Assembly (NCBI GenBank): GCA_934276635.1
Contig: CAKQTH010000001.1
Coordinates: forward strand, 72,098-136,097
Source of the DNA: an uncultured Alphaproteobacteria bacterium
GTDB taxonomy: Bacteria; Pseudomonadota; Alphaproteobacteria; RF32; CAG-239
DNA length: 64,000 nucleotides
Direction: 5' to 3'
The notes under the pieces were generated by a model. That model had not been told where the DNA came from, made no database searches, and was given only the letters and a program-made list of their open reading frames with translations. Within the stretch, counting starts at the first letter, position 1. Each line of letters opens with the position of its first letter. Positions 35,741 to 64,000 of this stretch are shown one piece after another. The position numbers and the translations under genes are program-made.

Positions 35741-35741
35741 A

Positions 35742-36293
35742 TTATGCACCTTTCATTGCCGTTTCGATTCGGCTTAATTTTCCCTTGATTGAATCATCGA
35801 TAATATCGGATTCATAGCGGATAATCAGCCCACCGAGAATTTCGGGTTTAATCTGATATTTTATAATCACTTTTTTAGATAATAATTCTTCTAAATTTTT
35901 TTGCAAATTTTTATCTTGGGTTTTGCTCAATTCTTTTACGGATTGCACTTCTACACCCACAAACCCGTTGTTTTTCAAATACATATCGCAAAATTCCTGC
36001 AAAATTCCGGCGAGTTCAGAAAATCTGTCATTTTGAGCGACAATTTCCATCAGGCGGCAAAGTTCAGGCGCCAATTCTGATTTTTTGCAGATTTCTTTTG
36101 CGGTAGAAATTTTTTCTTCAAGGCTGATAAGCGGAGATGAAAAATATCGTGTTATGTCGCCGTCTTTTTGCAAAATTTCGAGCAATTCAGAGGTCTGAGC
36201 ATAAACCTCTTTTACCGCATCGTCTTGCGCCGCGCCTCCGAGCAGGGCTTTGGCATAAATTCTATCTATTTTGTATTTTGAAGTTTTTTGCAA
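35742..36293 (-). CDS. atpH: F1 ATP synthase delta (OSCP) subunit
   Basis: 183 aa OSCP-like; operon position upstream of atpA. Confidence 0.8.
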
Positions 36294-48090: not shown

Positions 48091-49134
48091 CTATTTTACG
48101 CCGTTTTCAAGAATAGAAAATGTTTTATTTATCGGGTCTATTTCTGCTTTTGCTCCATAAGGTAAAATAAACATCGGGTCAGTGTGTCCGAAATCCATTT
48201 GTGTAATAACCGGCAAATCTTGTAATCCATATTCTTTTAATATGGCAGATATTGTATTGTCACAACAGTCAAAATCCTTTTGGGTTAAGCCTGTTCCGCC
48301 GGGACGGCCGAATATTATCCCGCTTGCAACTTCAAAAATCCCTGTCGCACAATAATTTCTGAGCCAATAACCGAAAATTTCGGGAAGAGCTTCTTTGCTG
48401 CAGGATTCAAAAAATAAGACAGCTCCTTTGAATGCATCTGTTGATGGCCAGATTGAAGTTCCTTTTATCATCTCCAACACTTCCATACAGCCTCCGATGA
48501 GCTTTCCTTGTACCTTTTCTTTCCCTTGTAAAAAATGCCATTTGGAGGGAGACATTTTTCTTTTTATGTTTTGATTTTCAGGTTTTCCCCAGTCTAACAT
48601 TTCATTAGTCCAGCCCTCAGATGACGGCTCGATTCGTCCGATAGGTTTTGTATCAAACAAAGTTTTGCGAACCGATGTTTCTAAGAGTTTGTGTAATCCG
48701 CAATTTTCTCCGAATCCGGACATAATGCTCGGCCCGTAAAAAGAAGATAAACCGGCATGCATGCATATAAAGTGGTTGGCTGTTGTGTCAGAATATCCCA
48801 TAAAGATTTTAGGATTGTTTTTTATGATATCAAAATCTATATACGGAAGAAGCCTGATAGTCTCGTCGCCGCCTATGGTCGATATAATTGCCTTAATCTC
48901 CGGATTGAGAAATGCGTTCATAAAATCTTGAGCCCTCTCTTTCGGGTGATTGTACAGCCAATCGTTGTCTTTTAATGTATGAGGCATGGGAACAACTTTA
49001 ACCCCGAAAGTTTGTTCAAGCTGCTGAACGCCGGTATCGTAACGATTTTTATATATGGAAGGGCCTCCCCATGATAAAGAAACAGTAGCAACAATGTCTC
49101 CGGTATTTAATTTATTCGGCTTGATTAACTCCAT
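48091..49134 (-). CDS. S66-family LD-carboxypeptidase (MccF-like)
   Basis: 347 aa; N-terminal KLNTGDIVATVSLSWGG, GYSDTTA nucleophile-Ser motif (MGYSDTTANHF), C-terminal His/Glu region. Confidence 0.75.
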   Translation of the reverse strand: MELIKPNKLNTGDIVATVSLSWGGPSIYKNRYDTGVQQLEQTFGVKVVPMPHTLKDNDWLYNHPKERAQDFMNAFLNPEIKAIISTIGGDETIRLLPYIDFDIIKNNPKIFMGYSDTTANHFICMHAGLSSFYGPSIMSGFGENCGLHKLLETSVRKTLFDTKPIGRIEPSSEGWTNEMLDWGKPENQNIKRKMSPSKWHFLQGKEKVQGKLIGGCMEVLEMIKGTSIWPSTDAFKGAVLFFESCSKEALPEIFGYWLRNYCATGIFEVASGIIFGRPGGTGLTQKDFDCCDNTISAILKEYGLQDLPVITQMDFGHTDPMFILPYGAKAEIDPINKTFSILENGVK

Positions 49135-49706: not shown

Positions 49707-50177
49707 ATGACATATACTGCCCGCTTCGGTGATGAAACAAGGCCAAAGGCTTATTATGAGTTGACTTATATCAAATGTGCAGATGTCAGCAGAACTATAG
49801 CTATGGAAGAGACAAGTGAGATAAGGAATCTTCTCTCTCAAATAAAAAATACATTAAATAACATTCCTTACATAGTAGAAGAACAAAAAGGAACTAATTG
49901 GTATATCAAATGGTCAAATGGCATTCTAGAACAAGGAGGAACATATGATAAAGGATCACAAGTTACAGATTGGAGCGTTAATATTACAATGAATGTTGCG
50001 TTCATTAATACAAATTACCAATTAAATTGCCAACTTTATAGATTGGATAATGCAACAGGCTCGATTAACAACCAAGTATTTATCATAAACAGGACATCAT
50101 CGATGTTTACTGCCAGGCCTTATGGTGATGGCTCATCCCGATATATAGATTGGTACGCACGTGGATACTGGAAATAA
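49707..50177 (+). CDS. phage-associated hypothetical protein (possible minor tail protein)
   Basis: 156 aa; first gene of the tail-tip module; no recognisable motif. Confidence 0.4.
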   Translation: MTYTARFGDETRPKAYYELTYIKCADVSRTIAMEETSEIRNLLSQIKNTLNNIPYIVEEQKGTNWYIKWSNGILEQGGTYDKGSQVTDWSVNITMNVAFINTNYQLNCQLYRLDNATGSINNQVFIINRTSSMFTARPYGDGSSRYIDWYARGYWK

Positions 50178-50193
50178 CAGAAAGGAACAGATA

Positions 50194-50736
50194 ATGCCTG
50201 ATACGACGCTTTCAGAAGCACTAAAGGAAGCCTATGCTTCAGCTCCGAGTGATGTAATTTTATTGCACACCCTGGAACTGAGGCATCCGTCTTTTATAGA
50301 TGATCAGGGCCGACCGACAGCTATCTGGGTCGTGCGTGATCACGTTAACCACACCTGCACGCTTGAAAACTCGGCTCCGCTCAATCCTGGAGAGGCTGTT
50401 GAGTTTATTGCCATGGCGTTTGATCTGGAATTGCCACCGGTCAACAACACGCCGACACCTGAGATTTCGGTCACGATCGACAACGTTTCAACTGAAATGA
50501 TTGCTTATCTTGACCGGGCTATTGAGACACAGGATATGATCGAGCTGACATACCGGTCATATCTGTCTGACGACCTGACAACGCCACAGATGGACCCGCC
50601 GATAACCTTGGTTATTACTGATATTCATGTGGACTGCTATAAAATAACGGCTACAGCCCGCATGATGGACATCGGCAACAAGTCGTTTCCAAGTGAAAAC
50701 TATACCGTTAAAAACTATCCGGGATTAACACGATGA
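50194..50736 (+). CDS. phage minor tail protein (gpL-like position; possibly DUF1833 family)
   Basis: about 180 aa, RBS AAAGGAAC; sits immediately upstream of the NlpC/P60 and J-like genes as in lambda L-K-I-J. Confidence 0.4.
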   Translation: MPDTTLSEALKEAYASAPSDVILLHTLELRHPSFIDDQGRPTAIWVVRDHVNHTCTLENSAPLNPGEAVEFIAMAFDLELPPVNNTPTPEISVTIDNVSTEMIAYLDRAIETQDMIELTYRSYLSDDLTTPQMDPPITLVITDIHVDCYKITATARMMDIGNKSFPSENYTVKNYPGLTR

Positions 50737-51137
50737 CACATTTTGCTTGTAAATATATAGGCTTGCCCTGGGTTGCCGGTGCGCAAGGCCCTGATGAATT
50801 TGACTGTTGGGGAATGGTGCGCTGGATCCTGAAGCACGAATACGGCATAGATGTGCCGGCGGTAAATGTTAATCCGGATAATCTTCGGAGCGTTTTAGTT
50901 GCGTTTAAAGAGGATCCTGCATTCCGGGCGTTTAATGAAGTTGAAAAACCGCAAGACGGTGATGTTGTTCTGCTTCGTCAGTCAAAACATCCGGTTCATG
51001 CCGGCTTATGGTTAGATGCAGACGGCGGTGGTGTTTTACATTGTTGCCGCGATGCCGGTGTTATCTTTCAAGATTTGCCATCAATGCGTCTGTGCGGGTG
51101 GCAAATAGACAGCTATTATCGAGTAAAAGGAAAATAA
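50733..51137 (+). CDS. phage NlpC/P60-family cell-wall peptidase (lambda gpK-like)
   Basis: 134 aa; catalytic Cys in FDCWGMVRW, His in HPVHAGLWL, second His near C-terminus (VLHCC). Confidence 0.7.
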   Translation: MTHFACKYIGLPWVAGAQGPDEFDCWGMVRWILKHEYGIDVPAVNVNPDNLRSVLVAFKEDPAFRAFNEVEKPQDGDVVLLRQSKHPVHAGLWLDADGGGVLHCCRDAGVIFQDLPSMRLCGWQIDSYYRVKGK

Positions 51138-53372
51138 ATGATTTACTTTTCACACATTACAAACCCTTTTCAGCCGAATAAGGGTCGGATAGACAATGTC
51201 CTTGATGACGGCAAAACCGTTTGGGACATGGTCCGGGAACAGAAAGTGGACCTTTCGCGCCCGACAATATGCATGATAGACGGTGACGCAGTCCTCAGGA
51301 AGTTTTGGAACGATACCGTTCAGCCGAAATCCTTGGTCTGCTTCATCACTTTGCCACAAGGCGGTGGCGGTAAAAAGTCATCAAACCCGATTCAGGTTGT
51401 TTTGATGGTGGCCGTTGTTGTTGCATCTGTTTATACGGGCGGTGCTGTGGCGGCGGCCTATGGTGCTGTTTGGGGTAGCGTTGCGGCGGCGGCAGTTTCC
51501 ATTGGCGGAAGCTTTCTCGTCAACACATTCGTTCCACCACCTAAGGCCTCTCTTAACGGGTCCGGTTCGTCAAACTCCATAGCGGCACAAAGTCCGACTT
51601 ACTCCTTGCAGGCACAGGGTAATCAGGCCCGACTTGGCAACCCAATACCGGTCATTTACGGACGACACCTGATTTATCCGGATTTTGCCAGTCAGCCTTA
51701 TTACGCTTACGCCAACGATGAACAATACGTTTTTCAGGTTCATTGTATTGGCCAAGGTGAATACAACATCGAAAAAATCCGAATTGAGGACACGCCGATC
51801 AGCTCGTTTGAAGAGATAACCTATCAGATCATCAATCCGGGCGAAACAAACACCTTATTCCGTGATGATGTGGTGACTTCGCCTGAGGTTGCCGGTCAGG
51901 AACTTCTAAAAGGAAACACGATCGGACCGTTTGTCTTGAATCCGACCGAAAGTGAAATTGACCGGGTCGAGATAGATGTTGCTTGTCAGCGCGGCCTTTA
52001 TTATGCAAACGACAGCGGTGGTTTGAATACAAAATCGGTCCAATGGCAGATAGATGCCCGAAAAATTGATGATGAGGACAACGCGCTGGGTGACTGGTTT
52101 ACTCTTGGTACCGAAACAATTTCAGCGAATACCGTCAACGGAATTTACCGGACATTTGGTTATTCTGTAGCCAAAGGCCGATACGAGGTCCGGGCTACCC
52201 GGTTAGATGACAAAGACACATCTTCCCGCGCTGGTCACGAACTCAGATGGGCCTCGGCAAAAGGCTTTATTGTATCGACGCCGGATTACGGGAACGTAAC
52301 CTTGCTCGCAATTAAAATGAAAGCAACCAACAACCTGTCACAAAGGTCAAGCCGAATGGTGAACTGTATCGTGACAAGGAAGTTGCCGACATGGTCGCCA
52401 AGCGGTGGCTGGACAACTAAACAGCCGACCCGGTCAATTGCTTGGGCCATTGCAGATGTTTTGAAAGCCAGTTATGGTGCCGGTCTGACGGATAAGTCCA
52501 TAGATTTGCCGGGCCTTTACCGGTTAGATCAGACTTGGACGGCGCATGGCGACACCTTTAACGGAGTGTTTGACAGTAAGCTGACCATATATGAGGCCTT
52601 ATCAAAGATCTGTAAAGTCGGCCGGTCTGTTCCTTATATTCAAGGCGGCATTGTCCGGTTTGTCCGGGACGAGCCAAAATCCATACCGGTTGCTCTGTTC
52701 GGGCCGAGGAACATCGTTAAAAACAGCCTGACAATTCAATACATCATGCCGTCAGAAGATACGGCGGACAGCGTTTGCGTTCAGTATTTTTCGGACCGGA
52801 CTTGGAAGAACTCGGAAATAACAGGAAGTTTTGCGGGATCCAGCTCAGATAAGACGGCAACTGTTGAGCTTTTCGGCTGTACCGATAAAAACCAAGCTCT
52901 CCGGGAGGCCATCTATATGGCGTTGGCTAACCGATATCGCCGGCGCATTGTGACATTTTCAACCGAACTGGAAGGTCTGATTCCGAGCTATGGGGATTTA
53001 ATCTCGATCACACACGATATGCCGCATTGGGGAACCGGCGGTGAAATCCTGTCAAAAAATGACATGACTTTAACGCTATCGGAACCGGTTGAGTTTACCG
53101 AGGGTCAAACTCACTATTTAGCCTTACGAACCAGAACTGGGGAACTATCCGGGCCATATCGGGTAAAAGCCGGATCGCTTCCGACAGAAGTTATTTTACT
53201 GGATATGCCCGATATTCCTATTGATACTGGGACCAATGCAGAACGAACTCATTTTGCCTTTGGAACCCAAGACAAATGGGGAACATTAGCTCGTGTAACA
53301 GGAATTAAACCGCGCTCCGGCAAGGTTGAAATTACTGCCGTCATTGAGGACAGCAGAGTTCACGCCAATTAA
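51138..53372 (+). CDS. phage tail host-specificity protein (gpI-like N-terminus fused to gpJ-like tail-tip domain)
   Basis: 744 aa; N-terminal Gly-rich hydrophobic segment GGGGKKSSNPIQVVLMVAVVVASVYTGGAVAAAYGAV resembling the lambda gpI C-terminus; central GNPIPVIYGRHLIYPDFASQPYYAY...RYEVRATRLDD resembling the J/GTA-g15 'putative phage tail' domain. Confidence 0.65.
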   Translation: MIYFSHITNPFQPNKGRIDNVLDDGKTVWDMVREQKVDLSRPTICMIDGDAVLRKFWNDTVQPKSLVCFITLPQGGGGKKSSNPIQVVLMVAVVVASVYTGGAVAAAYGAVWGSVAAAAVSIGGSFLVNTFVPPPKASLNGSGSSNSIAAQSPTYSLQAQGNQARLGNPIPVIYGRHLIYPDFASQPYYAYANDEQYVFQVHCIGQGEYNIEKIRIEDTPISSFEEITYQIINPGETNTLFRDDVVTSPEVAGQELLKGNTIGPFVLNPTESEIDRVEIDVACQRGLYYANDSGGLNTKSVQWQIDARKIDDEDNALGDWFTLGTETISANTVNGIYRTFGYSVAKGRYEVRATRLDDKDTSSRAGHELRWASAKGFIVSTPDYGNVTLLAIKMKATNNLSQRSSRMVNCIVTRKLPTWSPSGGWTTKQPTRSIAWAIADVLKASYGAGLTDKSIDLPGLYRLDQTWTAHGDTFNGVFDSKLTIYEALSKICKVGRSVPYIQGGIVRFVRDEPKSIPVALFGPRNIVKNSLTIQYIMPSEDTADSVCVQYFSDRTWKNSEITGSFAGSSSDKTATVELFGCTDKNQALREAIYMALANRYRRRIVTFSTELEGLIPSYGDLISITHDMPHWGTGGEILSKNDMTLTLSEPVEFTEGQTHYLALRTRTGELSGPYRVKAGSLPTEVILLDMPDIPIDTGTNAERTHFAFGTQDKWGTLARVTGIKPRSGKVEITAVIEDSRVHAN

Positions 53373-53385
53373 GAAAGGACACATC

Positions 53386-53628
53386 ATGGATTGGATTCAA
53401 TTTTTACAGATCATCTGCGTACCGGCCTTTGGCTGGTTTTTTTATAAACTCGGGGAGCAACGCAAGGAGATTAAAACCCTCGAGCGTGACCTCAACGAGT
53501 TCAAAGTTGCGGTGGCCAAGGAATATGCCACTCAGGTTAACATCAATCGCATGGAGACAAAGATTGATGAATTACATCAGCTTTTATGGGAGATGCACAA
53601 TGAACACACCACGCGGCATAAGAAATAA
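53386..53628 (+). CDS. phage small membrane protein (N-terminal TM plus coiled coil; holin or holin-associated)
   Basis: 81 aa; RBS GAAAGGA; TM FLQIICVPAFGWFFY then charged coiled-coil. Confidence 0.45.
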   Translation: MDWIQFLQIICVPAFGWFFYKLGEQRKEIKTLERDLNEFKVAVAKEYATQVNINRMETKIDELHQLLWEMHNEHTTRHKK

Positions 53629-54007
53629 TAACCCCGGCAACATCCGTTGGGGTTCGGACTGGAAAGGATTAAAAAAGGACGGGAAACAGCAAGACCCGTC
53701 CTTTTGTGTATTTGAAACGCCTGAATACGGTATCCGAGCGTTGGCTAAATTACTGCGGAACTATCAGCGGCTTTATGGCCTGAACACACCTTATAGGATT
53801 ATCAGCCGGTACGCACCACCAACCGAAAACGAAACAGTTTCATATATAGACAGCGTGTCCCGGCAGTTAAACAGCACTCCGGACACACCGGTCGACCTTT
53901 CGGAAGATGGTGTCTTGCTGGTCTTTATTAAGGCAATCATCAGACATGAGAACGGCATACAACCATACTCTAATGAACCTCTATTGAAAGGAATACAAAT
54001 GGCATGA
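53600..54007 (+). CDS. phage protein with conserved RGIRNNNPGNIR motif (candidate cell-wall-active or virion protein)
   Basis: 135 aa; RBS GGGAG; start overlaps the previous gene out of frame; ATGA stop/start overlap with the next gene. Confidence 0.45.
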   Translation: MNTPRGIRNNNPGNIRWGSDWKGLKKDGKQQDPSFCVFETPEYGIRALAKLLRNYQRLYGLNTPYRIISRYAPPTENETVSYIDSVSRQLNSTPDTPVDLSEDGVLLVFIKAIIRHENGIQPYSNEPLLKGIQMA

Positions 54008-54222
54008 AAAAACGGCTTTGGATCCCGGTCCTCGGATGGATCTTGTGTTATGGTTTTTTGCACAACTGTCTGATAGCCCCTATAACGGGTCTGCCGGTAG
54101 TGGATTGGGAATATTTATTAACGGCCATGGGCATTTTACTCGGTGTCAGTGGCGCACGAGATATTGGATTAAAGGAAAGAAAAACACAAGATGTGGTATC
54201 AGATCACAAACCTTTGGAATAA
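54004..54222 (+). CDS. holin-like small membrane protein (2 TM)
   Basis: 72 aa; TM1 IPVLGWILCYGFL, TM2 YLLTAMGILLGVSGA, charged C-terminus. Confidence 0.5.
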   Translation: MKKRLWIPVLGWILCYGFLHNCLIAPITGLPVVDWEYLLTAMGILLGVSGARDIGLKERKTQDVVSDHKPLE

Positions 54223-54412
54223 AGGTAAATACTGGATAATCGCCGGTGCGGTGGCCGTTTTATACATACTCGGCTATCGGCGCGGCAAGGAAAAAGAACA
54301 AGTGAAAGTAATGAAAGGAACGGTGGACAATGTCAAAACGGCTAAAAGAAGTCGGGATAGCCTGGCTGATCCTAAGCGCGTTAAGCGGTTGCACGACAAA
54401 TATAAACGGTGA
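54191..54412 (+). CDS. Rz-like inner-membrane spanin (i-spanin)
   Basis: 73 aa; N-terminal TM YWIIAGAVAVLYILGY then Lys/Arg/Glu-rich periplasmic helix. Confidence 0.45.
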   Translation: MWYQITNLWNKGKYWIIAGAVAVLYILGYRRGKEKEQVKVMKGTVDNVKTAKRSRDSLADPKRVKRLHDKYKR

Positions 54413-54524
54413 TTTTTGCCTTTTATACGAACCGGTGTATGCGGATTATGAGCATGACACCCCGGAAACAATACATCAAATTGATAGGAATAACGTAGTT
54501 TATGACGATTTATGTACAAATTAA
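54330..54524 (+). CDS. Rz1-like outer-membrane lipoprotein spanin (o-spanin), overlapped with the Rz-like gene in a different frame
   Basis: 64 aa; lipobox LSALSGC; starts inside the Rz-like ORF and extends past it (overlapped spanin architecture). Confidence 0.45.
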   Translation: MSKRLKEVGIAWLILSALSGCTTNINGDFCLLYEPVYADYEHDTPETIHQIDRNNVVYDDLCTN

Positions 54525-54592
54525 AAGATTTTGTTTGTATTCTCAGATATAATTTGATAGTATGTCTAATTAGCAAAATTGAAAGAGGTGTT

Positions 54593-55480
54593 ATGTTAAT
54601 ACTGAATATCAATGGGCCAATAAATTCTGGTAAATCAACCGTTTCTAAAATTTTGGTGAATATGTTCCCTAACACCACTTTTATTGAAGTGGATGAGCTG
54701 ATGAGTGATGAGGAACAAGCAAAGCTAGGATTATCCCTTCAACAAGGATGGCGGGAACGTCATAAACGATTGAAGCAGAAATTGCAAGCTCTTAAAAAAT
54801 CGCGTGCGTATGAAACTGTGATTTTTGCCTATCCGATTGCTGACAATACCTATCAAGATTGGAAAGCCTTGAAGGATGAACAGACAAAGTTTTTAAACAT
54901 TACCCTTGCACCCAATTTAGAGGAATGTCTAAAAAATCGTGGTACGCGAGAGTTGGACGATTGGGAACGGAACAGAATCAAAGAAATGTATGAGGAAGGC
55001 TATCAAAATCGTCCTTATTCCGACTTTATTATCAATAATGATAACCAAACACCCGCAGAAACCGCTGAGATTATTAAAGATTTTATTGAACATGCTTTAT
55101 CCCCGAAACAGCAATGGTTACATTTGGTTGAAAGGCGTTGGCCGGCTTTGTTAAATGGCGAAAAGACTTCCACATTCCGTTTGAATGAAGGATTTGTTCA
55201 TAAAGGATTTTTGGTCTATAAAGACTGCCCAAAAGAACAGTGGGCTGAGGTTGTTTATGTAACACAAATTTATTATGTGCCTTTGCGCCAAGCTATTGAA
55301 ATTGACGGATATGATGAACATACACCGGACATGGAAACAGCACTAAAACAAATGCGTGTTCATTACCCAGATATTACTTTGGATACGCCCATTTTATTTG
55401 CTCAGCATTTAGGCGCCCCAGAAACAAAGCAAAAATATCCACAAGAAGTGGCAAAAATTTTAAAGGAAATGGAAAAATGA
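54593..55480 (+). CDS. P-loop kinase (CPT/AAA_33-like) fused to a C-terminal ASCH domain
   Basis: RBS GAAAGAGGTG; Walker A NGPINSGKSTVS; C-terminal ASCH-like LLNGEKTSTFRL... Confidence 0.55.
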   Translation: MLILNINGPINSGKSTVSKILVNMFPNTTFIEVDELMSDEEQAKLGLSLQQGWRERHKRLKQKLQALKKSRAYETVIFAYPIADNTYQDWKALKDEQTKFLNITLAPNLEECLKNRGTRELDDWERNRIKEMYEEGYQNRPYSDFIINNDNQTPAETAEIIKDFIEHALSPKQQWLHLVERRWPALLNGEKTSTFRLNEGFVHKGFLVYKDCPKEQWAEVVYVTQIYYVPLRQAIEIDGYDEHTPDMETALKQMRVHYPDITLDTPILFAQHLGAPETKQKYPQEVAKILKEMEK

Positions 55481-55947
55481 GCTTACCAATTTGCTATCTT
55501 ATTTGTGGATTTTTGGGAGCTGGTAAGACAACTTATTCCCAAAAACTTTCAAAAGAAACGGGGGCCATTCATCTGAATCCAGATGAATGGTGTATGAAAT
55601 TGTTTTCTAAAGAAGAATATGAGCAAAATTGGAGCAAATGTTTTTCTGAAACAATAGAGCATCTTTGGAAAAAAGCAGAGGAATATGCTAAAAATGGAAA
55701 ATCCATTATTTTCGATATGGGATTTTGGACAAAACAAAGTCGGGATGAAGCAACACAAAGGGCAAAGGATTTGGGATTCAATCCTGTTATACATTTTTTG
55801 AATGTGCCAGATGAGATTTTGAAACAGCGGATTAGTGCTAGGAAAGGGACAATTGCAGAATATAATTTAAAGCATTTTGATGAATTAAAGAAGCAATTTG
55901 AAGAACCAGAAGAAAAAGAACAATATGTAAGAATAGAAAATTATTGA
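55477..55947 (+). CDS. P-loop kinase (AAA_33 / predicted small-molecule kinase family)
   Basis: Walker A CGFLGAGKTTYS, 156 aa; ATGA overlap with the upstream gene. Confidence 0.6.
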   Translation: MSLPICYLICGFLGAGKTTYSQKLSKETGAIHLNPDEWCMKLFSKEEYEQNWSKCFSETIEHLWKKAEEYAKNGKSIIFDMGFWTKQSRDEATQRAKDLGFNPVIHFLNVPDEILKQRISARKGTIAEYNLKHFDELKKQFEEPEEKEQYVRIENY

Positions 55948-55963: not shown

Positions 55964-56449
55964 ATGCGTAAATCTGCTCGAGCAATCATAATTACAAAAG
56001 AAAACAAACTGCTATTGATGAAACGCACAAAACCGAATGAGGTATATTATGTTACAATCGGTGGTGGTATTGAAGATAGTGAAACATCTGAGCAAGCATT
56101 ATTGCGTGAGTTAAAAGAAGAAAGCGGAAGCATTGTTGATAAACCAGTTTTTGCTTTTCATTATGATGATATTGAAAGGCAAAATAGTGTGGATTTTTAT
56201 GTTTGTAAGGAAATTAATCGTACAAAACCGACAGGAATAGAATGTACAAAGCTAAACATGTCGGGTAATCAATATGAACTTACAGAAATAAGTAAAGATC
56301 AAATTAATAATATTCCACTTAAACCAGATGCTATCAAGGATAAGATTATCAAGATTTTTACTGATCAAGTAGATAATACTCTCCTTGAACCAAAGCTGAT
56401 TAAAAATAAAATCATCAAAAATTTTGAACATATTATTGTTAGGATTTAA
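55964..56449 (+). CDS. NUDIX hydrolase
   Basis: Nudix box GGGIEDSETSEQALLRELKEESG; RBS AAAGGAAG. Confidence 0.75.
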   Translation: MRKSARAIIITKENKLLLMKRTKPNEVYYVTIGGGIEDSETSEQALLRELKEESGSIVDKPVFAFHYDDIERQNSVDFYVCKEINRTKPTGIECTKLNMSGNQYELTEISKDQINNIPLKPDAIKDKIIKIFTDQVDNTLLEPKLIKNKIIKNFEHIIVRI

Positions 56450-56563: not shown

Positions 56564-57154
56564 ATGAAAAAGAAGATATATTTGTGTCGACATGCAGAAA
56601 CTATTTGGAATATTCCAGAAAATCAGCACCTACAGGGGTGGTCAGATAGTGATTTAAGCGAAAAGGGAAGAAATCAGACTTTGTTATTAAAAGATTTTCT
56701 CTTGAGAAGTAATATCTTAAAAATTTATACAAGCCCTTTGCTGCGATGTATTAGGACATTAAAACCTTTTTTAGAAACTAGAAATGTTGCTTGTGAAACA
56801 TTGGATCAATTAAAAGAGATAAATTATGGTTTATATGATGGACTGCCTTCGCATGAAGCTCGTCTTAAATATAGAGATTTTTTTACAGTTTACGATAATT
56901 CTCAAGATCCACAATCAAATACAATCCAATTTCCAAAAGGTGAAAGCAGGTTCGATGCTGCAAAACGCTTGTTGGAGGTATTAAAACATATCGTTACACA
57001 GGATGGTACGTGCTTTATTATGACGCATGGAGGGGTCCTGAGTTCTCTATTCCTTCTGTTATTTAATAAAAAACGAGAATTTAATAACTGTGAAGTTATA
57101 GAGCTTTGGTATGATAATTTACAAAAAAAATTTATAATTGAGGGGGATAAATGA
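56564..57154 (+). CDS. histidine phosphatase superfamily protein (phosphoglycerate-mutase-like branch 1)
   Basis: catalytic RHAET at residues 9-13 (LCRHAETIWN), 196 aa. Confidence 0.7.
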   Translation: MKKKIYLCRHAETIWNIPENQHLQGWSDSDLSEKGRNQTLLLKDFLLRSNILKIYTSPLLRCIRTLKPFLETRNVACETLDQLKEINYGLYDGLPSHEARLKYRDFFTVYDNSQDPQSNTIQFPKGESRFDAAKRLLEVLKHIVTQDGTCFIMTHGGVLSSLFLLLFNKKREFNNCEVIELWYDNLQKKFIIEGDK

Positions 57155-58800
57155 TAGAACTGCGTACAAAAAGTCCTTTAACAATAGTAGGGGTTAATTT
57201 AGGTCATGACGGTGGTGCGTGTATAATCCATAAAAATAAAATTATTAGTATTTCCGAGGAACGTTTGACCCGAAATAAAAAAGGATATGGATATCTATCT
57301 GCTTTGTTTTACTGTTTAAAGTCGCTTAAAATTACTGTAAAAGATATAGATTATGTTGCATTTAGTACTTATCATAAAAGACTACCTAAAGGGTATTTAG
57401 GCTTATTTGAAAGTTTGGGATTTAATAAAAAACAATCAATTATTATTGATCATCATGAATCTCATGCGTATGGTTCCTATTATTTATCAGGATTTGACGA
57501 GGCTCTGGTTGTTGTAATGGATGGCATGGGAAATGAAAATATGTCCGAAAGTTACTATCTGGCAAAAGGAAATAAAGTTAAAATTATCGGACATAATGAT
57601 TTAGATCGCTCTATATATGCTGGAGTAGGACGAGCATATGAATCGTTTACTAACTTCATTGGCTGGCCTACAACATGTGCTGGAAAAACAATGGGATTAT
57701 CTGCTTATGGGAAAGGAAACTACAAAAATATAAGATTGTTTAAAATAGATGATAATTTAAGGGTTTCCGCAGATTTGAAGAAAAAATATGGTGCTTCTGC
57801 TGAAGAATTTCTCTCAAGAAAGCATTTATCTGAACTTCTAAAAGAAAAAGGGAAGTTATCTGATGCAAAAGAAGTCGCAAAATTGATTCAAGATAAGACA
57901 GAAGATCTTTTTGTAGATCTAATAAAAAAATTAGTAGAGAAAACAGGCATTAGAAAGTTATGCTTAACAGGCGGATGTGCCCTTAATTGTGTTGCAAATC
58001 AAAAGTTATTAGATTTAGGCATTGTCGATGAAATATTTGTACCTCCATACCCCTGTGATACAGGACAAGCTGTTGGAAATGCCATAGCGGGGCTTGCTAA
58101 GAAAAAGATATATATAAAAGAAAGATTACCACACCCGTATTTTGGGAGGATGTATGATCGTAAAGAGATCTTAGATGTTTTACAAAAGAAACAGGAAATT
58201 TATCCACTTCCTTATGAAATAAAAATTAAGGATTATGACTTTAAAGAAATTCTTGATGAAAAAAAATATAACGAAATAATAGCAGACTATATTAAACATG
58301 ATCTTGTAGTCGGCTGGTTTCAAGGAGATTCCGAATTAGGACCGCGTGCCTTAGGTCATCGCAGTATTTTAGCAAATCCGACGTCCAAAACGATGAAGGA
58401 TCACATAAATATGAAAGTGAAGAAAAGAGAACCGTTCAGGCCTTTTGCAGCAAGTCTTTGCGATGATGATGTAGAAACATATTTCAAAAGTGGGCTTCAC
58501 GATAGATTTATGTCTTTTGCAATAGATTTAAAGGAAAAATATATTCCATTAATTCCAGCTGTTTTACATGTTGATAATACCTGTCGCCTTCAATCAGTTT
58601 CAAAAAAAGAGAACCCGAAGTATTATTCCTTAATAAAAGAACTAAAGAAAAAAATTGGTGTTCCAATGGTTTTAAATACTTCTTTTAACGAGGATAAAGA
58701 ACCAATAGTGGAAACCCCTGTTGATGCTTTAAGGCATTTAGCTGTTGGTAATATTGATGTTCTTGCTATGGATGATTTTATTGTGAGGTTAAAGAAATGA
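57151..58800 (+). CDS. NodU/CmcH-family O-carbamoyltransferase (TobZ/NovN-like)
   Basis: HHESH metal motif, GWFQGDSELGPRALGHRS, KREPFRPFA, HVDNTCRLQSV, NTSFN: the full set of family signatures; 549 aa. Confidence 0.85.
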   Translation: MIELRTKSPLTIVGVNLGHDGGACIIHKNKIISISEERLTRNKKGYGYLSALFYCLKSLKITVKDIDYVAFSTYHKRLPKGYLGLFESLGFNKKQSIIIDHHESHAYGSYYLSGFDEALVVVMDGMGNENMSESYYLAKGNKVKIIGHNDLDRSIYAGVGRAYESFTNFIGWPTTCAGKTMGLSAYGKGNYKNIRLFKIDDNLRVSADLKKKYGASAEEFLSRKHLSELLKEKGKLSDAKEVAKLIQDKTEDLFVDLIKKLVEKTGIRKLCLTGGCALNCVANQKLLDLGIVDEIFVPPYPCDTGQAVGNAIAGLAKKKIYIKERLPHPYFGRMYDRKEILDVLQKKQEIYPLPYEIKIKDYDFKEILDEKKYNEIIADYIKHDLVVGWFQGDSELGPRALGHRSILANPTSKTMKDHINMKVKKREPFRPFAASLCDDDVETYFKSGLHDRFMSFAIDLKEKYIPLIPAVLHVDNTCRLQSVSKKENPKYYSLIKELKKKIGVPMVLNTSFNEDKEPIVETPVDALRHLAVGNIDVLAMDDFIVRLKK

Positions 58801-59867
58801 ACAATTTAACATTATCTCAACCAGAATTAAAACAACGAATTGTAATAGGGCGTGATTTTTATCTAGAAGAATTAGAAAAATTCATAGCAGTATCTGATTA
58901 TAAATCTATATTTTTAATTTATGATACAAATTTAAAAGAAGAAAAAAAGAAAATTGCCAATTTATTAAAAAATAAACGTTTTTCATCATATGGAATTAGA
59001 GCAAATCAAGAAAAAAGTACTAACTTGGTAATCTCGGCAATAAAAAAAATGCAAATTTTTGGTTGCCTTAGAAACACGTTATTAATTGCTCTTGGTGGTG
59101 GTTTTATAGGAGATATTAGTGGTGTAGTCTCATCTGTATATATGCGTGGAATAGACTATATCCAGATAGGAACAACTGCTATGTCACAATTTGATGCAAT
59201 AGTACAAAAAGTAGCTGTTAATGTGAATCATTATAAAAATATTATGGGCGCATTTCATTCGCCAATATTAACTTTTTGCGATACAGAATTCGTTGAAAAA
59301 GACCCTTCATGTTTAAATTCGTTTTGTGAAGTAATCAAACACAAAATTATTGTAAAAAGTTCTTTGAAACAACTTCAAGAGCTAGAAAATAAAGAGCTAA
59401 AAAACGGAGAATTTCCAAAAATTATTTATGATTCTTTGAAAGTAAAATTGAATTGCGCAGCTCATGATCCATTTGATACTCTTGGAATACAAAAAAAACT
59501 GTCCTTAGGGCATACTATTGCGAATATCATAGAAACAAAAACATCTTTAACTCATGGGGAAGCTGTTTGGATTGGATTGCTAGTGGCTATAAGAGTTTCA
59601 CTATTTTTATATCCTAAATCTAATTATTTAGCTGATCTAGACGTTTTTACAAACAATTTTATAGTAAAACACAAAGTGAAACTCCCTAAAATAACTCTAA
59701 AGAAAGACGATATTCTACCACTCCTAAAGAAGGATAAAATATCTATGGATAAGGGGTTATCTATGGTGATAATCAATGAGAAAAATGAAGTTTCTATAAA
59801 AAATGATTTGTCTATTGATACAATTATCTCTGCGATGAGAAAAACACCTTATATAAGAGTAAAATAA
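58797..59867 (+). CDS. 3-dehydroquinate synthase-like sugar-phosphate cyclase (DHQS/DOIS/EEVS superfamily), divergent
   Basis: GGGFIGDISGVVSSVYMRGIDYIQIGTTAMSQFDAIVQKVAVN, KNIMGAFHSP, metal-binding GHTIANIIE...HGEAVWIG; 356 aa. Confidence 0.7.
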   Translation: MNNLTLSQPELKQRIVIGRDFYLEELEKFIAVSDYKSIFLIYDTNLKEEKKKIANLLKNKRFSSYGIRANQEKSTNLVISAIKKMQIFGCLRNTLLIALGGGFIGDISGVVSSVYMRGIDYIQIGTTAMSQFDAIVQKVAVNVNHYKNIMGAFHSPILTFCDTEFVEKDPSCLNSFCEVIKHKIIVKSSLKQLQELENKELKNGEFPKIIYDSLKVKLNCAAHDPFDTLGIQKKLSLGHTIANIIETKTSLTHGEAVWIGLLVAIRVSLFLYPKSNYLADLDVFTNNFIVKHKVKLPKITLKKDDILPLLKKDKISMDKGLSMVIINEKNEVSIKNDLSIDTIISAMRKTPYIRVK

Positions 59868-59872
59868 ATTTT

Positions 59873-60949
59873 TTAGAAATTTGTAACGGTTGGTATTTCT
59901 TTTAGGCTCTTAATGTCTTTCTTTTGCTTATACCATTCAAACAGCCAGTTCCACATTTTATAAATAAATACTTTATCCTCTTTTATATAGCCCAATACAT
60001 TAGAAACGAGGAAACAGCGGCAAAACATTCGAGAAACAAATTCTTTTCTCCAATCAAAATATTTAGAGCATTCTGCCACAGTCGGTAAAAACATTTTATC
60101 AAAAAAGACATCAAAAGTGAGTTTTGCGTCCACCAAATTAATCGGGCCAGTTAGACTACTGTTATTTTTTATAAATATGGGGTTATATTTCATTAGTAAA
60201 AGGCGCTGAGAACTCAAAAACCAGAAACATATACTAATATCGCATAAAATTGGATTTATTCCGCACTGGTCTAAATCCCAAAACAACCAATCATATGAAT
60301 AATTAAAATCATATAAATCGCCGTGTGACAACGTTGTCAATGTAATTGAATCCGATTTGAAGTATTCTATTACAGTCGCAATAGATTCTGAAATACTATC
60401 AAGTAAATCAGGTGCCAGTCGTGAAATATCTTGAAGAAGTAGCAAATAATCATTTTGGTAAAAATTTACGGCCCTTCCTTTAAACAAGCGATCTTCAAAA
60501 AAAGTCGCCGAAGGATAGTTGTCTGTTTTTTCAGAGGATTCAATATTTTTTAAATATAGGTGCGATAATTTATTGAAAAATTGTGTGATTTTATTCCTTT
60601 TATGAATATCTCTATCATACCCTACATACACAAACCCATTCTTTTCTTTTGCTTGAATATATTCATAAACAAGAACTGTCGTCTTGTTTTTTCCAAGAAT
60701 TGAGTCCAGTATTTTAGGCGTAGGAAATAAAAGACTAAAATTTTTTAGTCGTATAAAATCACTTTGTGAAAAATTATCATAAAAAAACTTTAAAAAATAT
60801 TTATTATTTTCAATTGTTAGTATTCCGCTTTTTATTTTAGAAGGTCTGTCCTTGTCGAAAAACGGTAGAAAATCAAACCCATGAATTTTATTTTCTATAA
60901 TTAAATTGATACATGACGTTAATTGACAATGTGTCACACTTACACTCAT
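59873..60949 (-). CDS. aminoglycoside-phosphotransferase (APH)/choline-kinase-fold kinase
   Basis: Brenner catalytic motif LSHGDLYDFN plus downstream D (WDLD); 358 aa; only minus-strand gene in the island. Confidence 0.65.
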   Translation of the reverse strand: MSVSVTHCQLTSCINLIIENKIHGFDFLPFFDKDRPSKIKSGILTIENNKYFLKFFYDNFSQSDFIRLKNFSLLFPTPKILDSILGKNKTTVLVYEYIQAKEKNGFVYVGYDRDIHKRNKITQFFNKLSHLYLKNIESSEKTDNYPSATFFEDRLFKGRAVNFYQNDYLLLLQDISRLAPDLLDSISESIATVIEYFKSDSITLTTLSHGDLYDFNYSYDWLFWDLDQCGINPILCDISICFWFLSSQRLLLMKYNPIFIKNNSSLTGPINLVDAKLTFDVFFDKMFLPTVAECSKYFDWRKEFVSRMFCRCFLVSNVLGYIKEDKVFIYKMWNWLFEWYKQKKDIKSLKEIPTVTNF

Positions 60950-61118: not shown

Positions 61119-62297
61119 ATGCATCGGCAATTTGATACATATACGACCTTTTTCGATTTGGGAATAGATCATGCAGATTTTCCATTCTGTTCGTTGGAGT
61201 ACTGTTCTGGTGGATTTAACAAAAAAAGAGCCCATACTAATCGTATTATTTGGAAGAGATTAACTGGACAGGATTTATCAGCAGAAGAAGCTATTCAAGC
61301 TGATAAGTTTATTCAGGGAATAGGTTATGCTGAACAAAAAAAGAAATTTGAACATTGTGCTTTATGTTCGGATACATTTACGTGTGAACCTCTTGTAGAG
61401 TTTTCTGGAAAATTTAATTATTGGGATTTAGCTTTTCCAACAAGCCCATATACTCCAGCAGGAATTATGATTTATTTAAAAGAACGTAAAAAATTAAGAT
61501 TAGAGGTTATTGATGCATTGTCGAAAGAGGCCTTTGAAGAAATTGAGACAATAGCAAACTCCCTTTTTTACATACTAAAAAATGAAATACCCGATCTATG
61601 TGGTGTAAATATACTGTTTCATCAAATTTCGACCTCTCAAGCCTGTTTACATGGGCATGTTGAGCTGATGCTTCACAATATAGACCCTTCTCTTGGATGT
61701 TTTTTAAAGAAACAGCGTCCATTTGATATTTGTGCGAACTACCTAAATAACCAACTTGAAGAAAAAGATAACATATGTTTTTTTACAGAGGGAATTAGAT
61801 TGAATAGTAAATCTTTTTCCGTATTAGAAACAATGAAAATTATTAAAGAATACCGCAATAATACTGTTAATTTATTTAATTTTTTTTCTGAAGTACGTAA
61901 AAATTACTTTAGTAAAACATCTAAACAAAAAAAGGCAAAAGAATTGCTTTCACAAAAAGGGTTTAATTCTACACAAATTGACCAGATATTATTTGATATA
62001 ACACCGGCCCCAATAAATTGTGTATATTTTACTTACTATAGGAATGAATATTTCATTTCTATTATTCCAGAATTAATTTTAAGATCAATACCATTAAGTA
62101 AAATCACAGATGATGAATACTTGTTATACAATTTAAAGTATAATGCCATTCAACCACGTGAAGAAAAGTTTTTTTTAGAAGAAAAGCACCCATTAATACG
62201 ACCAAGTATAAAATTGAGACAAGCAATGCCTGCTGATAAAAAAATATTAATCTTAAAACAAATCGTTCACAATATATTATCAAAGGAGCGTTTATGA
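61119..62297 (+). CDS. hypothetical protein; tentative GalT/HIT-like nucleotidyltransferase
   Basis: 392 aa; N-terminal Cys pair FPFCSLEYCSGG resembling the GalT zinc site; His dyad LHGHVELML resembling the HIT/GalT H-x-H motif; assignment weak. Confidence 0.4.
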   Translation: MHRQFDTYTTFFDLGIDHADFPFCSLEYCSGGFNKKRAHTNRIIWKRLTGQDLSAEEAIQADKFIQGIGYAEQKKKFEHCALCSDTFTCEPLVEFSGKFNYWDLAFPTSPYTPAGIMIYLKERKKLRLEVIDALSKEAFEEIETIANSLFYILKNEIPDLCGVNILFHQISTSQACLHGHVELMLHNIDPSLGCFLKKQRPFDICANYLNNQLEEKDNICFFTEGIRLNSKSFSVLETMKIIKEYRNNTVNLFNFFSEVRKNYFSKTSKQKKAKELLSQKGFNSTQIDQILFDITPAPINCVYFTYYRNEYFISIIPELILRSIPLSKITDDEYLLYNLKYNAIQPREEKFFLEEKHPLIRPSIKLRQAMPADKKILILKQIVHNILSKERL

Positions 62298-63100
62298 TGG
62301 GATTTTCTTTTCTTACATTGCCCCATTCACATTTAGTAAAAATAGTTAGTTTATTAGATAACTTGTCTAATGATGAAAAAGGCTTCCTACGTAAAAGTGG
62401 GGATATTACGATAGACAATGGACATTACTTCATTAAGGAATTGAGAAAAGAACGAATTATTTTTCCTCCAGATCAATACATTAAATTTTATCAGGAGTAT
62501 TATCACAAATTAAATTCCGCTATTGAGACATATCCTTCCTATGGTATGTGGTGTATAGACAATAAAGTATTTGAGGTTCAACCATTTATTGCTAATCAAT
62601 CTATAATGATGAGAGGGACTCTATTGGATTGGAATACCTTAAAAAAGACTTATACAAAAATACTACAAGATATTGATTCAGTTCAAAGAAAATATGGAAC
62701 AAAAGATTTTTCTTTCGTTGGAATTGAAACTGCGATTTGGAATTTTTCAACAGATGGACGTCTGTATGATTTTAATCCTGTGCGCCTATATAATGCAAAT
62801 TGTCTATTTACCACAACAAATGATCCTGATATGCTAGAAAAAACAAAGTTTCGTAATTTCTCGCCTTTTGGAATGAAGGTTAATTTATTAGCAACAGTTG
62901 GAATCGCAGTCAAAAATAAAGATTTTATCTTGCAAAATAATCCAAACAATTGGTTTTTGGAGTTAAAATCGATACTTAGGGATAATCTTAAGGCTCAAGA
63001 TAGTGAAAAAGTCGATCTACTTGAAAATCAAACTGATTTTCCTAAATGGCATCCGTTACAAATAATAAATAATTTCAACAGGGGGGGAAGAAATGGATAA
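62294..63100 (+). CDS. hypothetical protein, degenerate APH-fold kinase paralogue (catalytic His-Gly-Asp not conserved)
   Basis: STDGRLYDFNPVRL aligns with SHGDLYDFNYSYD of the 59873-60949 kinase but lacks the HGD triad; RBS AAGGAG. Confidence 0.45.
   Translation: MMGFSFLTLPHSHLVKIVSLLDNLSNDEKGFLRKSGDITIDNGHYFIKELRKERIIFPPDQYIKFYQEYYHKLNSAIETYPSYGMWCIDNKVFEVQPFIANQSIMMRGTLLDWNTLKKTYTKILQDIDSVQRKYGTKDFSFVGIETAIWNFSTDGRLYDFNPVRLYNANCLFTTTNDPDMLEKTKFRNFSPFGMKVNLLATVGIAVKNKDFILQNNPNNWFLELKSILRDNLKAQDSEKVDLLENQTDFPKWHPLQIINNFNRGGRNG
63081..63087. repeat. G7 homopolymeric tract overlapping the RBS of the IMPase-like gene
   Basis: ggggggg at 63081-63087. Confidence 0.9.
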
Positions 63101-63829
63101 ATATTCGGATTTAGAGAAAATACTGCAAAAATTAATATCCCTTTCTGTTGAAGCTGGAGAACTAGCTAAATCGATTAAAGAAAAAAAAGAATGTGCAGAT
63201 GAAGAAATTGAAATTTTTATCCGTAATAATTTAAAAGACTTCAATTATTCATTTATAGGAGAAGAAACAAAACCTTTTATAAATCAAACTTCTAACCGTT
63301 GTTTTGTTGTCGATCCGATTGATGGCAGTCTGAACTATCAGAATGGTGATGAAAATTGGTGTGTTTCTATATCTCTTATGGAGAATGAAGCGCCGCTTCT
63401 TGGGGTTGTTTTTGTTCCTGAAAAACATATGCTTTTTTACGCGCAAAAAACAAAAGGGGCAAAAATCCTTGATTGTCAGAAACATTCCGAAAGCAGTCTT
63501 GTTATTAAAAAGAAATCAAATTTAATTGAATTATTAGGGGCATCCGACAATTCTACCAAGATCAGAGAAATCTTGCTAAATACTGTTTTAGATAAAAATT
63601 ATATTCGTTTCCGACATACAGGATCCATAGTTGTTGCTTCTTTAAAGCTAATAATGGGGGAGCAAGAGGTATAATATATGGGGGAAAGACTCATTTGCAT
63701 GATATAGCAGCTGTATGGTTAATTGTTAAAGAAAGCGGTGGGGAAACATTCTTTAATAAGGATAAAGGATTGTTTATTGCGACACAGGATAAAGAGACAA
63801 TGGAAAAATTAGAGAGGTTTTATTTATGA
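63093..63829 (+). pseudogene. inositol monophosphatase-family gene split by a +2 frameshift at a G5 run (63680-63684)
   Basis: N-terminal frame 63093-63674 carries the metal motifs FIGEETKPF and FVVDPIDGSLNY; the C-terminal signature HDIAAVWLIVKESGGE (WD-AAG...EAGG) lies in the +2 frame 63677-63829. Confidence 0.55.
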
Positions 63830-64000
63830 TAAAGGATGCAGAATGGAATAATATAAAAGAAATCGTGGCACAATTGAATATTCCAAATGAGTACAGAGAA
63901 GCTATCATATTTGGAATAAAGAAAATCTATAACGTTATGCCTTATAAACCCATTTTTATTGGGATATGTGGTAGTGCCGCGCGAGAAGATATTGTTCCAA
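63828..64000 (+). CDS. nucleotidyltransferase-domain protein (Pol-beta superfamily, ANT/Lnu-like), N-terminal part; continues past window end
   Basis: ...IGICGSAAREDIVP matches the G-S-x-A-R-G nucleotidyltransferase motif; ATGA overlap with the preceding stop. Confidence 0.45.

Follow-up and report, generated by a model that had tools for sequence, protein, structure and literature searches.

A cyclase-like gene and its active site

The 64,000-nucleotide stretch of DNA analyzed here (the window) comes from an uncultured alphaproteobacterium of the CAG-239 lineage (GenBank assembly GCA_934276635.1, contig CAKQTH010000001.1, positions 72,098 to 136,097 of the forward strand). Toward its end, on an island of low GC content, lies a gene for a divergent relative of 3-dehydroquinate synthase (DHQS, AroB). 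[quoted passage not shown] It belongs to a distinct clade and, judged by its kept and exchanged residues and by the conserved neighboring genes, probably converts a neutral sugar phosphate into a keto-cyclitol that would then be activated and carbamoylated.

58797–59867, + strand: cyclase-like protein of the DHQS superfamily, new clade, 356 aa (assigned from Pfam, NCBIfam, residue mapping, tree and dN/dS)

The gene, noted in a preliminary description of this DNA, is a 356-aa frame free of interruptions and contains both domains of a DHQS-like protein: the N-terminal Rossmann-like domain DHQ_synthase (PF01761; 91.3 bits, cut-off 24.2, E = 4.3e-26) and the helical domain DHQS_C (PF24621; 61.3 bits, cut-off 27.6, E = 1.3e-16). 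E-values of this order mean that the open reading frame (ORF) is not a chance frame. Its start overlaps the stop codon of an upstream carbamoyltransferase gene (ATGA), which indicates translational coupling of the two, and a GAGG Shine-Dalgarno element lies ∼10 nt upstream of the start. The best NCBIfam and PDB matches are to DHQS (PDB E = 4e-29). The score against the AroB equivalog model TIGR01357 is 178.4 bits versus a curated cut-off of 305, and that against TIGR04425 (AroB-related putative sugar phosphate phospholyase) is 132.7 bits versus a cut-off of 400; none of the curated SPC-type models of NCBIfam is reached.

Classical active-site positions, given here in the numbering of Aspergillus nidulans DHQS (AnDHQS), were mapped in a MAFFT L-INS-i alignment. 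[quoted passage not shown] Their deposited sequences were retrieved from the PDB sequence library with HMMER; BtrC (2d2x) and 1dqs matched the queries over their full length at every position, while EEVS is represented by residues 31–399 of 4p53 and DDGS by residues 35–444 of 5tpr.

The cyclase keeps the NAD loop GGGxxGD (G100–G102, D106) and the zinc ligands E178, H239 and H253 (E194, H271 and H287 in AnDHQS); the loop and the three ligands are invariant in a 17-sequence alignment of the clade described below. It also keeps K138 (K152), N148 (N162), K181 (K197), K217 (K250), K314 (K356), R117 (R130) and D133 (D146). The complete DHQS machinery for oxidation, beta-elimination, reduction and aldol reaction is thereby retained. 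By domain content, by NAD loop and metal ligands, and by catalytic residues alike, the protein belongs to the SPC superfamily, and the mapping does not reveal the loss of catalytic residues expected of an inactive relic. At the position of the NAD-ribose-binding Glu of AnDHQS (E81), the cyclase has Asn, and this position is variable in the clade.

[quoted passage not shown] Q232 stands at the position of R264, the Arg that binds the DAHP carboxylate in the DHQS structure. S236 occupies the position of N268 (LN to LS), N243 that of H275, and V136-Q137 replace G150-G151 (VQK versus GGK). Carpenter et al. reportedly described in 1998 that H275 and N268 contact the phosphate in DHQS. On alignment, the two replaced residues are pocket positions that differ between known SPC classes.

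All motifs quoted in the preliminary description are present: GGGFIGD (residues 100–106), GTT (125–127), QKVAVN (137–142), GHT (238–240) and HGEAV (253–257). The metal-binding His positions that it read from GHT...H and HGEAV are indeed kept as H239 and H253, but the reading GHT...H hides the most informative change, the exchange of H275 for Asn, the motif being GHTIAN instead of GHTxGH. Replacement of PTT by GTT is likewise genuine (IGTT, residues 124–127) but was given too much weight. Only the nearest relatives (P0001–3 and P0005) share it; one further locus (L015) also has G at that position, three other members (P0008, L018 and L020) have S, and most of the clade retains PTT. GTT, limited to the closest relatives of the query, is therefore not diagnostic of the clade. 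QKVAVN in place of GGKTGIN (GGKTxI(N/D) in DHQS) is only partly informative: the loss of the first Gly of GGK is clade-wide, and K138, equivalent to the catalytic K152 of AnDHQS, is kept. Loss of GGK is typical of DOIS and DDGS as well, so the reasoning built on it stands. To the S268/N275/Q264 signature the preliminary description did not refer.

A clade with its own fingerprint

The signature (Q/H)264, S268 and N275, together with the absence of G150, is shared by all 21 of the nearest metagenomic homologues (P0001–P0021, 28–97% identical). Among the top 120 homologues, 21 carry the signature and 97 the canonical R/N/H; it was seen in none of the 97 canonical AroBs examined. It also occurs in 10 genome loci, mostly in metagenome-assembled genomes (MAGs) of the Candidate Phyla Radiation (CPR). 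Overall, none of the 32 members of the clade has R264, whereas each of the 97+ AroBs does. When GTDB species representatives were scanned with the alignment of the clade, 80 loci were obtained; in ∼65 of these (Bacillaceae, Clostridia, Acidobacteriota and others) the motif is R..LN.GHT.GH without exception. Loci reading H..LS.GHT.AN came from Candidatus Saccharibacteria, Kazan, Falkowbacteria, Parcubacteria (two), Magasanikbacteria, Nomurabacteria and Peribacteria, as well as from one unclassified Patescibacteria MAG and two uncultured Gammaproteobacteria MAGs. The clade is found mainly in CPR bacteria, whose specialized metabolism is almost unknown, and (Q/H)264-S268-N275 provides a clean, testable active-site mark for it. 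No clade members were found in phage records, IMG/VR or plasmid collections.

We built a neighbor-joining tree from 52 sequences (355 columns, Kimura distances, 100 bootstraps). The 32 signature sequences were monophyletic in 99/100 bootstraps. EEVS and DDGS formed a separate group that excluded the clade (100/100), and a grouping of the clade with BtrC was never recovered (0/100). Canonical AroB is paraphyletic in this tree; the new clade has a long stem that originates next to Firmicutes AroB. The preliminary description had taken the protein for a non-DHQS cyclase whose substrate cannot be predicted by eye, and had named a phylogeny against DHQS, DOIS, EEVS, EVS and DDGS as one check. In our tree the cyclase lies not within bona fide AroB but in its own clade with 99% support, separate from canonical AroB. 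This placement, the missed AroB cut-off, the loss of the carboxylate-binding Arg, the retained catalytic residues and the purifying selection described below all support the non-DHQS assignment. The classes that had been suggested (DOIS-, EEVS- or DDGS-like) fared differently, as the cyclase departs from all three in both fingerprint and tree position.

DHQS: R264, N268, H275; K250 and K356
DOIS (BtrC): G264, E268, H275; N at 356
EEVS (ValA): R264, D268, P275; M at 250
DDGS: D264, A268, P275; M at 250
New clade: Q/H264, S268, N275; K250 and K356

As the residues at 264, 268 and 275 are unlike those of every class compared, the clade represents a further fingerprint state. On these comparisons, made with DHQS, DOIS, EEVS and DDGS references, we rate it as a putative specificity class that is new within a known superfamily and has a new operon context. 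Full-text searches of the literature gave no description of the clade or the cluster, within the limits of those searches.

To assess constraint, we calculated pairwise dN/dS values (nonsynonymous over synonymous substitution rates) by the Nei–Gojobori method. Comparison of the cyclase with L095, a 97%-identical variant, gives a dN/dS of 0.167. With L097, a 67% relative, the value is 0.14, and with L007, a 55% relative for which synonymous sites are saturated, it is ∼0.2. Neighboring genes gave similar values (carbamoyltransferase, 0.04; protein-kinase-like (PKL) kinase, 0.25; 392-aa protein, 0.11). Across 17 clade members 42 columns are invariant, and mean column identity is 45%. The cyclase is under purifying selection.

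The island and its partner genes

Genomic context, which the preliminary description did not treat, is the main new information. The first 49 kb of the window are ordinary chromosome of ∼44% GC, with genes for GlgB, GlgX, MalQ, transketolase, PriA, SpoT, Der and AtpA. AtpA (window 34190–35749, − strand) is most similar to the alpha subunits of mitochondria and Paracoccus, with scores of 766 and 729 bits versus 560 for that of E. coli, which suggests an alphaproteobacterial host. Beyond this region, the following features surround the cyclase gene.

49707–54500, + strand: truncated prophage with lambda-like tail-tip genes (DUF1833, NlpC/P60, 744-aa GpJ-like) and small lysis/spanin-like ORFs
54512–55480, + strand: 322-aa protein with a P-loop kinase-like N-terminal part and a C-terminal ASCH domain, from profile matches
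55477–55947, + strand: small P-loop kinase (AAA_33/Zeta-toxin-like), 156 aa, with weak similarity to the viperin-associated kinase VakA
55964–56449, + strand: small NUDIX hydrolase, 161 aa; some relatives have it as a fusion with the PKL kinase or the P-loop protein
56564–57154, + strand: phosphatase or mutase of the histidine-phosphatase superfamily (branch 1), 196 aa (His_Phos_1, 1.4e-35)
57151–58800, + strand: NodU/TobZ/CmcH-type O-carbamoyltransferase, 549 aa (Carbam_trans_C, 2e-62; Carbam_trans_N, 4.5e-40; phrog_1601, 9e-112)
59873–60949, − strand: PKL (APH/ChoK-type) small-molecule kinase, 358 aa, from family invariants and the matches of family members
61119–62297, + strand: 392-aa protein, tentatively a GalT/HIT-like nucleotidyl transferase or phosphorylase, from motifs and AlphaFold2 (AF2) fold matches
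62294–63100, + strand: 268-aa protein, homologous to the N-terminal half of a 508-aa protein of locus L093
63093–63826, + strand: frameshifted gene for an IMPase/CysQ-family phosphatase, with an N-terminal 193-aa ORF at 63093–63674
63826–64000, + strand: Pol-beta-type nucleotidyltransferase (NTase), 245 aa, cut by the window end, from a GS...DVD motif and model matches

No head or terminase genes lie upstream of the tail-tip genes, and hence the prophage is truncated. Its remnant is the upstream border of the low-GC island, which has a GC fraction of 0.29–0.33 over ∼10 kb (window 55.4 to ∼65.0 kb, judged from metagenome locus L001, which reaches past the window). The P-loop/ASCH gene, first after the prophage lysis genes, is intermediate in GC. 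Downstream of the island, L001 encodes an SNF2 helicase that scores 255 bits against DrmD of DISARM (L001:17362–21071, just past the window end, at ∼66.2–69.9 kb in window numbering), followed by a ResIII/RE_endonuc protein of >1000 aa; this neighborhood is of a defense type, which is only suggestive with respect to role. Searches around the island for att-type direct repeats gave only AT-rich chance matches, no tRNA was found at its border, a riboswitch search found none, and promoter and terminator scans were at chance level. Overall, the cluster is a horizontally acquired cargo island of ∼10 kb beside a prophage remnant and a DISARM-like gene. It is carried by a human-gut bacterium found in several cohorts: contigs of several human-gut metagenome projects, including Hadza samples, encode an identical cyclase protein. 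The tail genes had also raised the idea that this DNA is a phage genome, which was rejected because the first 49 kb are chromosome and no clade member turned up in the phage and plasmid collections.

Overlaps of 4–8 nt join the 54512 and 55477 kinase genes, the His_Phos_1, carbamoyltransferase and cyclase genes, and the genes for the 392-aa, 268-aa and IMPase-like proteins; such overlaps indicate operons. The His_Phos_1 gene, which overlaps the carbamoyltransferase start by 4 nt, is also present in L007 and L010. The 358-aa kinase has no Pfam match of its own, and its AF2 model, made from a three-sequence alignment, was not used (pLDDT 44), the assignment coming from invariants and from Pfam and PDB profiles. 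Its family of 39 members shows invariant K54, D211, N216 and D225, the pattern Lys...(H/Q)GD-x4-N...D typical of PKL small-molecule kinases. Matches to Pfam APH and EcKL occur within the family, four of its members are NUDIX fusions, and its profile matches amicoumacin kinase (4e-5). No Pfam family was found for the 392-aa protein, which has invariant HCxxC and C-x-H-G-H-x-E motifs. Its AF2 model is of good quality (pLDDT 81, pTM 0.85), and the only suggestive folds matched are of the HIT superfamily: DUF4931 (4qvu), aprataxin, HINT2 and GalT-like 1zwj. Two of 17 family members match Pfam GalP_UDP_tr_C. From the model and these matches, we tentatively regard it as a GalT/HIT-like nucleotidyl transferase or phosphorylase.

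The C-terminal half of the 508-aa relative of the 268-aa protein is a P-loop kinase. In metagenome variants L001 (13498–14319), L003 and L006 the 268-aa protein is 273 aa long, with a 3'-end polymorphism where its gene overlaps the IMPase start. The C-terminal motif block of the IMPase/CysQ-like protein (HDIAAVWLIVKESGG) is encoded in another frame, at ∼63650–63826. Six independent metagenome loci (L001–L006) have the gene split in this way, while the 97%-identical variant of the island (L095/L096) encodes an intact protein of 244 aa. In PADLOC 2.0, matches were weak and limited to the P-loop kinases (pVip-kinase, 1.4e-4; VakA, 5.7e-7) and the NUDIX protein (candidate PDC-S07, 3.8e-9); its defense models gave no match for the cyclase, the PKL kinase, or the 392-aa and 268-aa proteins.

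We then counted partner genes by all-against-all BLAST and profile searches in 14 independent signature-positive loci. A Pol-beta NTase lies near the cyclase in 10 of them, a PKL kinase in nine, a NUDIX protein in nine and a carbamoyltransferase in four; at least one of PKL kinase, NTase and NUDIX was present in all 14. Misses fall mostly on 3-kb contigs or contig edges, and in well-assembled loci the PKL kinase is the most constant partner. Shikimate (aro) genes are absent within 10 kb of the cyclase at all 14 loci, and neither the window island nor any related locus has an aminotransferase, dehydrogenase or glycosyltransferase.

Synteny is conserved in L007 (where the NTase is fused to GNAT), L010/L014, L012, L018, L019 and L020. 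The Falkowbacteria locus (L018) has the order P-loop protein, NUDIX, PKL kinase, NTase, carbamoyltransferase, haloacid dehalogenase (HAD) and cyclase, and the Parcubacteria locus (L020) the order NUDIX, P-loop, NUDIX, PKL kinase, NTase, HAD and cyclase. Kazan (L016), Magasanikbacteria (L042) and one gammaproteobacterial MAG (L038) share a second architecture, which runs from the cyclase through a protein of ∼370 aa, a PKL kinase and a HAD (Cof-type) phosphatase to a protein resembling a phosphoribosyltransferase (PRTase). In Kazan an APH-like kinase and a canonical HIT protein precede it, and housekeeping genes flank it. The protein between cyclase and PKL kinase in these three loci (365–377 aa) is conserved, has no Pfam match and shows no detectable similarity to genes of the window. 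The Peribacteria locus includes a Glucosamine_iso-family gene, a weak hint of a hexose-6-phosphate-type substrate.

Several further observations concern these loci. The Candidatus Peribacteria MAG with L010/L014 (GCA_964655935.1) has in-frame TGA codons under table 11 that are read through with table 25, and hence its genetic code is an alternative one; after its cyclase locus comes a YcaO/nitroreductase pair of the kind seen with ribosomally synthesized and post-translationally modified peptides. The 35%-identity locus L012 (14434–18930) encodes two CYTH (triphosphate-tunnel) proteins, three NUDIX proteins, Methyltransf_21, Peptidase_S66 and S51. A Peptidase_S66 gene is also found in the window (48091–49134, − strand), upstream of the prophage, where it appears to be chromosomal; its presence near the cyclase cluster in both cases may be coincidence or linkage.

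A related operon of five genes at L093:8095–13090 (GCA_947623595.1; GC 0.27) comprises a PKL kinase, a Pol-beta NTase, a 392-like protein, a fusion of a 268-like protein with a P-loop kinase, and NUDIX. It has neither cyclase nor carbamoyltransferase, and it lies on a mobile element, next to an HTH regulator and two serine recombinases. The nucleotide-handling module can therefore stand alone; in a subset of loci the cyclase is attached to it, either by itself or along with the carbamoyltransferase. The five-gene module is possibly a conflict system.

Possible function and comparison with known systems

If the protein is a cyclase, its substrate would be not DAHP but a neutral sugar phosphate, such as hexose-6-phosphate or sedoheptulose-7-phosphate. 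The reaction would proceed through NAD+-mediated oxidation, beta-elimination of phosphate, reduction, ring opening and aldol closure, with release of phosphate and formation of a keto-cyclitol. SPC products lack a phosphate, which makes the adjoining PKL kinase the logical next step: this APH/ChoK-like enzyme would re-phosphorylate the cyclitol, and the Pol-beta NTase might then join it to a nucleotide (or a phosphoribosyl transfer might do so). The HIT/GalT-like and NUDIX enzymes may exchange or cleave the pyrophosphate link, while the His_Phos_1 and IMPase-like phosphatases, or HAD in other lineages, would trim. In this lineage, the coupled carbamoyltransferase would add an O-carbamoyl group. 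The predicted product is a carbamoylated cyclitol phosphate or nucleotide conjugate, which could decorate the surface, act as an antimetabolite or a signal, or work against phages.

Several points weigh against this cyclitol pathway. Conservation alone points to the substrate, the product and even the closing of a ring, and replacement of H275 and N268 could change the chemistry, not just the specificity. We identified no glycosyl- or phospho-transferase for which an activated cyclitol would be the substrate. In the window the IMPase-like gene carries a frameshift, and the L093 module, which has no cyclase, implies that the nucleotide module does not strictly need a cyclitol. The tree is a neighbor-joining tree of 52 sequences, not a maximum-likelihood tree, and identity with 2-epi-valiolone synthase (EVS), aminodehydroquinate synthase (aminoDHQS) or EboD, which were not among the references, is excluded only indirectly.

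Aristeromycin is made by a carbocyclic route of the myo-inositol-1-phosphate synthase (MIPS) type, and viperin makes 3'-deoxy-3',4'-didehydro-nucleoside triphosphates (ddhNTPs). A bolder reading, which we hold with little confidence, is that the cluster is a new conflict or antimetabolite system that makes a carbocyclic pseudo-nucleotide or pseudo-nucleotide-sugar from a central sugar phosphate, carried as prophage-adjacent cargo in gut bacteria and widespread in CPR episymbionts. If true, it would be a way of making carbocyclic nucleotide analogues with a DHQS-fold enzyme, different from the MIPS-type route to aristeromycin and comparable in function to viperin ddhNTPs.

Alternatively, the protein may close no ring at all but act as an NAD+-dependent oxidoreductase or phospho-lyase on a nucleoside phosphate or nucleotide-linked phosphate, in a nucleotide-modifying (possibly anti-phage or toxin) system. 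It would then oxidize its substrate transiently and eliminate phosphate by beta-elimination. The phosphate site of DHQS is where the two exchanged residues, N268 and H275, are located, and every neighbor (NUDIX, HIT, NTase, PRTase, P-loop and PKL kinases) handles nucleotides or phosphates. The island also lies between a prophage remnant and a DrmD-like gene, and its P-loop kinases weakly resemble viperin-associated kinases. However, we know of no precedent in the superfamily for a non-cyclizing DHQS-fold phospho-lyase, and the pocket competent for aldol reaction and cyclization (K250, K356, D146 and K197) is retained in full. The PADLOC matches are weak and do not extend to the cyclase or the PKL kinase, and IMG/VR, phage and plasmid collections yielded no member of the clade. 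We consider this explanation unlikely.

That the protein is a DOIS, and the island an aminoglycoside-type (2-deoxystreptamine) cluster with TobZ-like carbamoylation and APH/ANT/AAC-type self-resistance, is in our view improbable. The resemblance lies in the loss of GG before the catalytic Lys (IKQAVN in BtrC, QKVAVN in the cyclase) and of R264, and in chemistry at H275 that may be comparable. Gene content adds to it: a TobZ/NodU-family carbamoyltransferase coupled to the cyclase, APH-like and ANT-like (Pol-beta NTase) neighbors and the NTase–GNAT fusion of L007 recall aminoglycoside clusters. BtrL and BtrP are a ribosylation pair, which the PRTase and HAD proteins of L016 and L038 bring to mind. 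On the other hand, the fingerprint of BtrC (G239, E243, H250 and N321) contrasts with Q/H, S, N and K in the clade, so that the catalytic Glu243 of DOIS is absent. Identity to BtrC is 21%, the two never group in the tree, and the aminotransferase, dehydrogenase and glycosyltransferase of such a cluster are found in no locus. A neutral sugar-phosphate cyclase of the kind we propose could nevertheless make 2-deoxy-scyllo-inosose or an epimer from hexose-6-phosphate by convergent specificity.

There is very little to recommend a divergent but genuine AroB paralogue serving aromatic amino acid synthesis, although AroBs are the closest sequences overall (23–28% identity). The cyclase resembles AroB (1dqs; S. 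aureus 1xag; Francisella 5hvn) in its two-domain fold family, GGGxxGD loop, zinc ligands and seven catalytic or pocket residues, K250, K356, K152, N162 and R130 among them; DHQS gives the best NCBIfam and PDB matches, and the clade branches within the paraphyletic AroB radiation, beside Firmicutes AroB. It differs in R264 to Q/H, N268 to S, H275 to N and GGK to (V/I)xK; loss of the carboxylate-binding R264 in all 32 members, set against its retention in 97+ AroBs, counts against this reading. The score of 178 bits falls below the equivalog cut-off of 305, the sequences form a separate clade, the gene sits on a foreign low-GC island, and no shikimate gene adjoins it at any of the 14 loci. CPR bacteria, in which the clade is concentrated, generally lack the shikimate pathway. 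Many '3-dehydroquinate synthase' labels of CPR proteins in databases are thus probably mis-annotations, which affects metabolic reconstructions that score this pathway.

It is barely credible that the cyclase is a decaying pseudo-enzyme on a degraded island: the frameshifted IMPase-like gene, the truncated prophage and the Asn at the variable E81 position might suggest decay, but the ORF is intact, all metal and catalytic residues are conserved across 32 sequences of 28–55% identity, dN/dS against the two closer relatives is 0.14–0.17, and synteny is kept over phylum-level distances.

EEVS (ValA, 4p53) and DDGS (5tpr) bear on a neutral-sugar-phosphate cyclase in another way. They share the superfamily with it, position 268 determines specificity there (D or A), and position 275 is likewise not His. 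Since these enzymes have Pro at 275, His275 is dispensable for cyclization. In other respects they are distant: identity to the cyclase is 17–20%, PDB E-values are 1e-12 to 1e-13 versus 1e-29 for DHQS, and M replaces K250 and V/T replaces K356. At the positions that define these classes (M250, D/A268, P275 and no Lys356) the cyclase reads K/S/N/K, and it does not group with ValA or Ava_3858. EboD has been placed in the EEVS/DDGS part of the SPC tree (PMC5133447), where the new clade does not lie. The cyclitol pathways built on EEVS offer a parallel to the order of enzyme types.

In the activation steps of validamycin and acarbose biosynthesis, EEVS is followed by a cyclitol kinase, a phosphatase or mutase, and an NDP-valienol nucleotidyltransferase. 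Angustmycin provides an assembly logic for an unusual nucleoside (PMC8599513). By analogy, and not by homology, the island would follow the same order of enzyme types: a phosphate-removing cyclase, a kinase, one or more phosphatases, and a nucleotidyl- or phosphoribosyl-transferase. Its partners are not homologous to those of the validamycin and acarbose pathways, with a PKL kinase versus ROK, a Pol-beta NTase versus a GlgC-type enzyme, and phosphatases of the His_Phos, IMPase and HAD families; a pseudoglycosyltransferase is missing, and NUDIX and HIT enzymes are added. The operon partners, all of them nucleotide or phosphate enzymes, with no aminotransferases or glycosyltransferases, are unlike those of any described cyclitol pathway.

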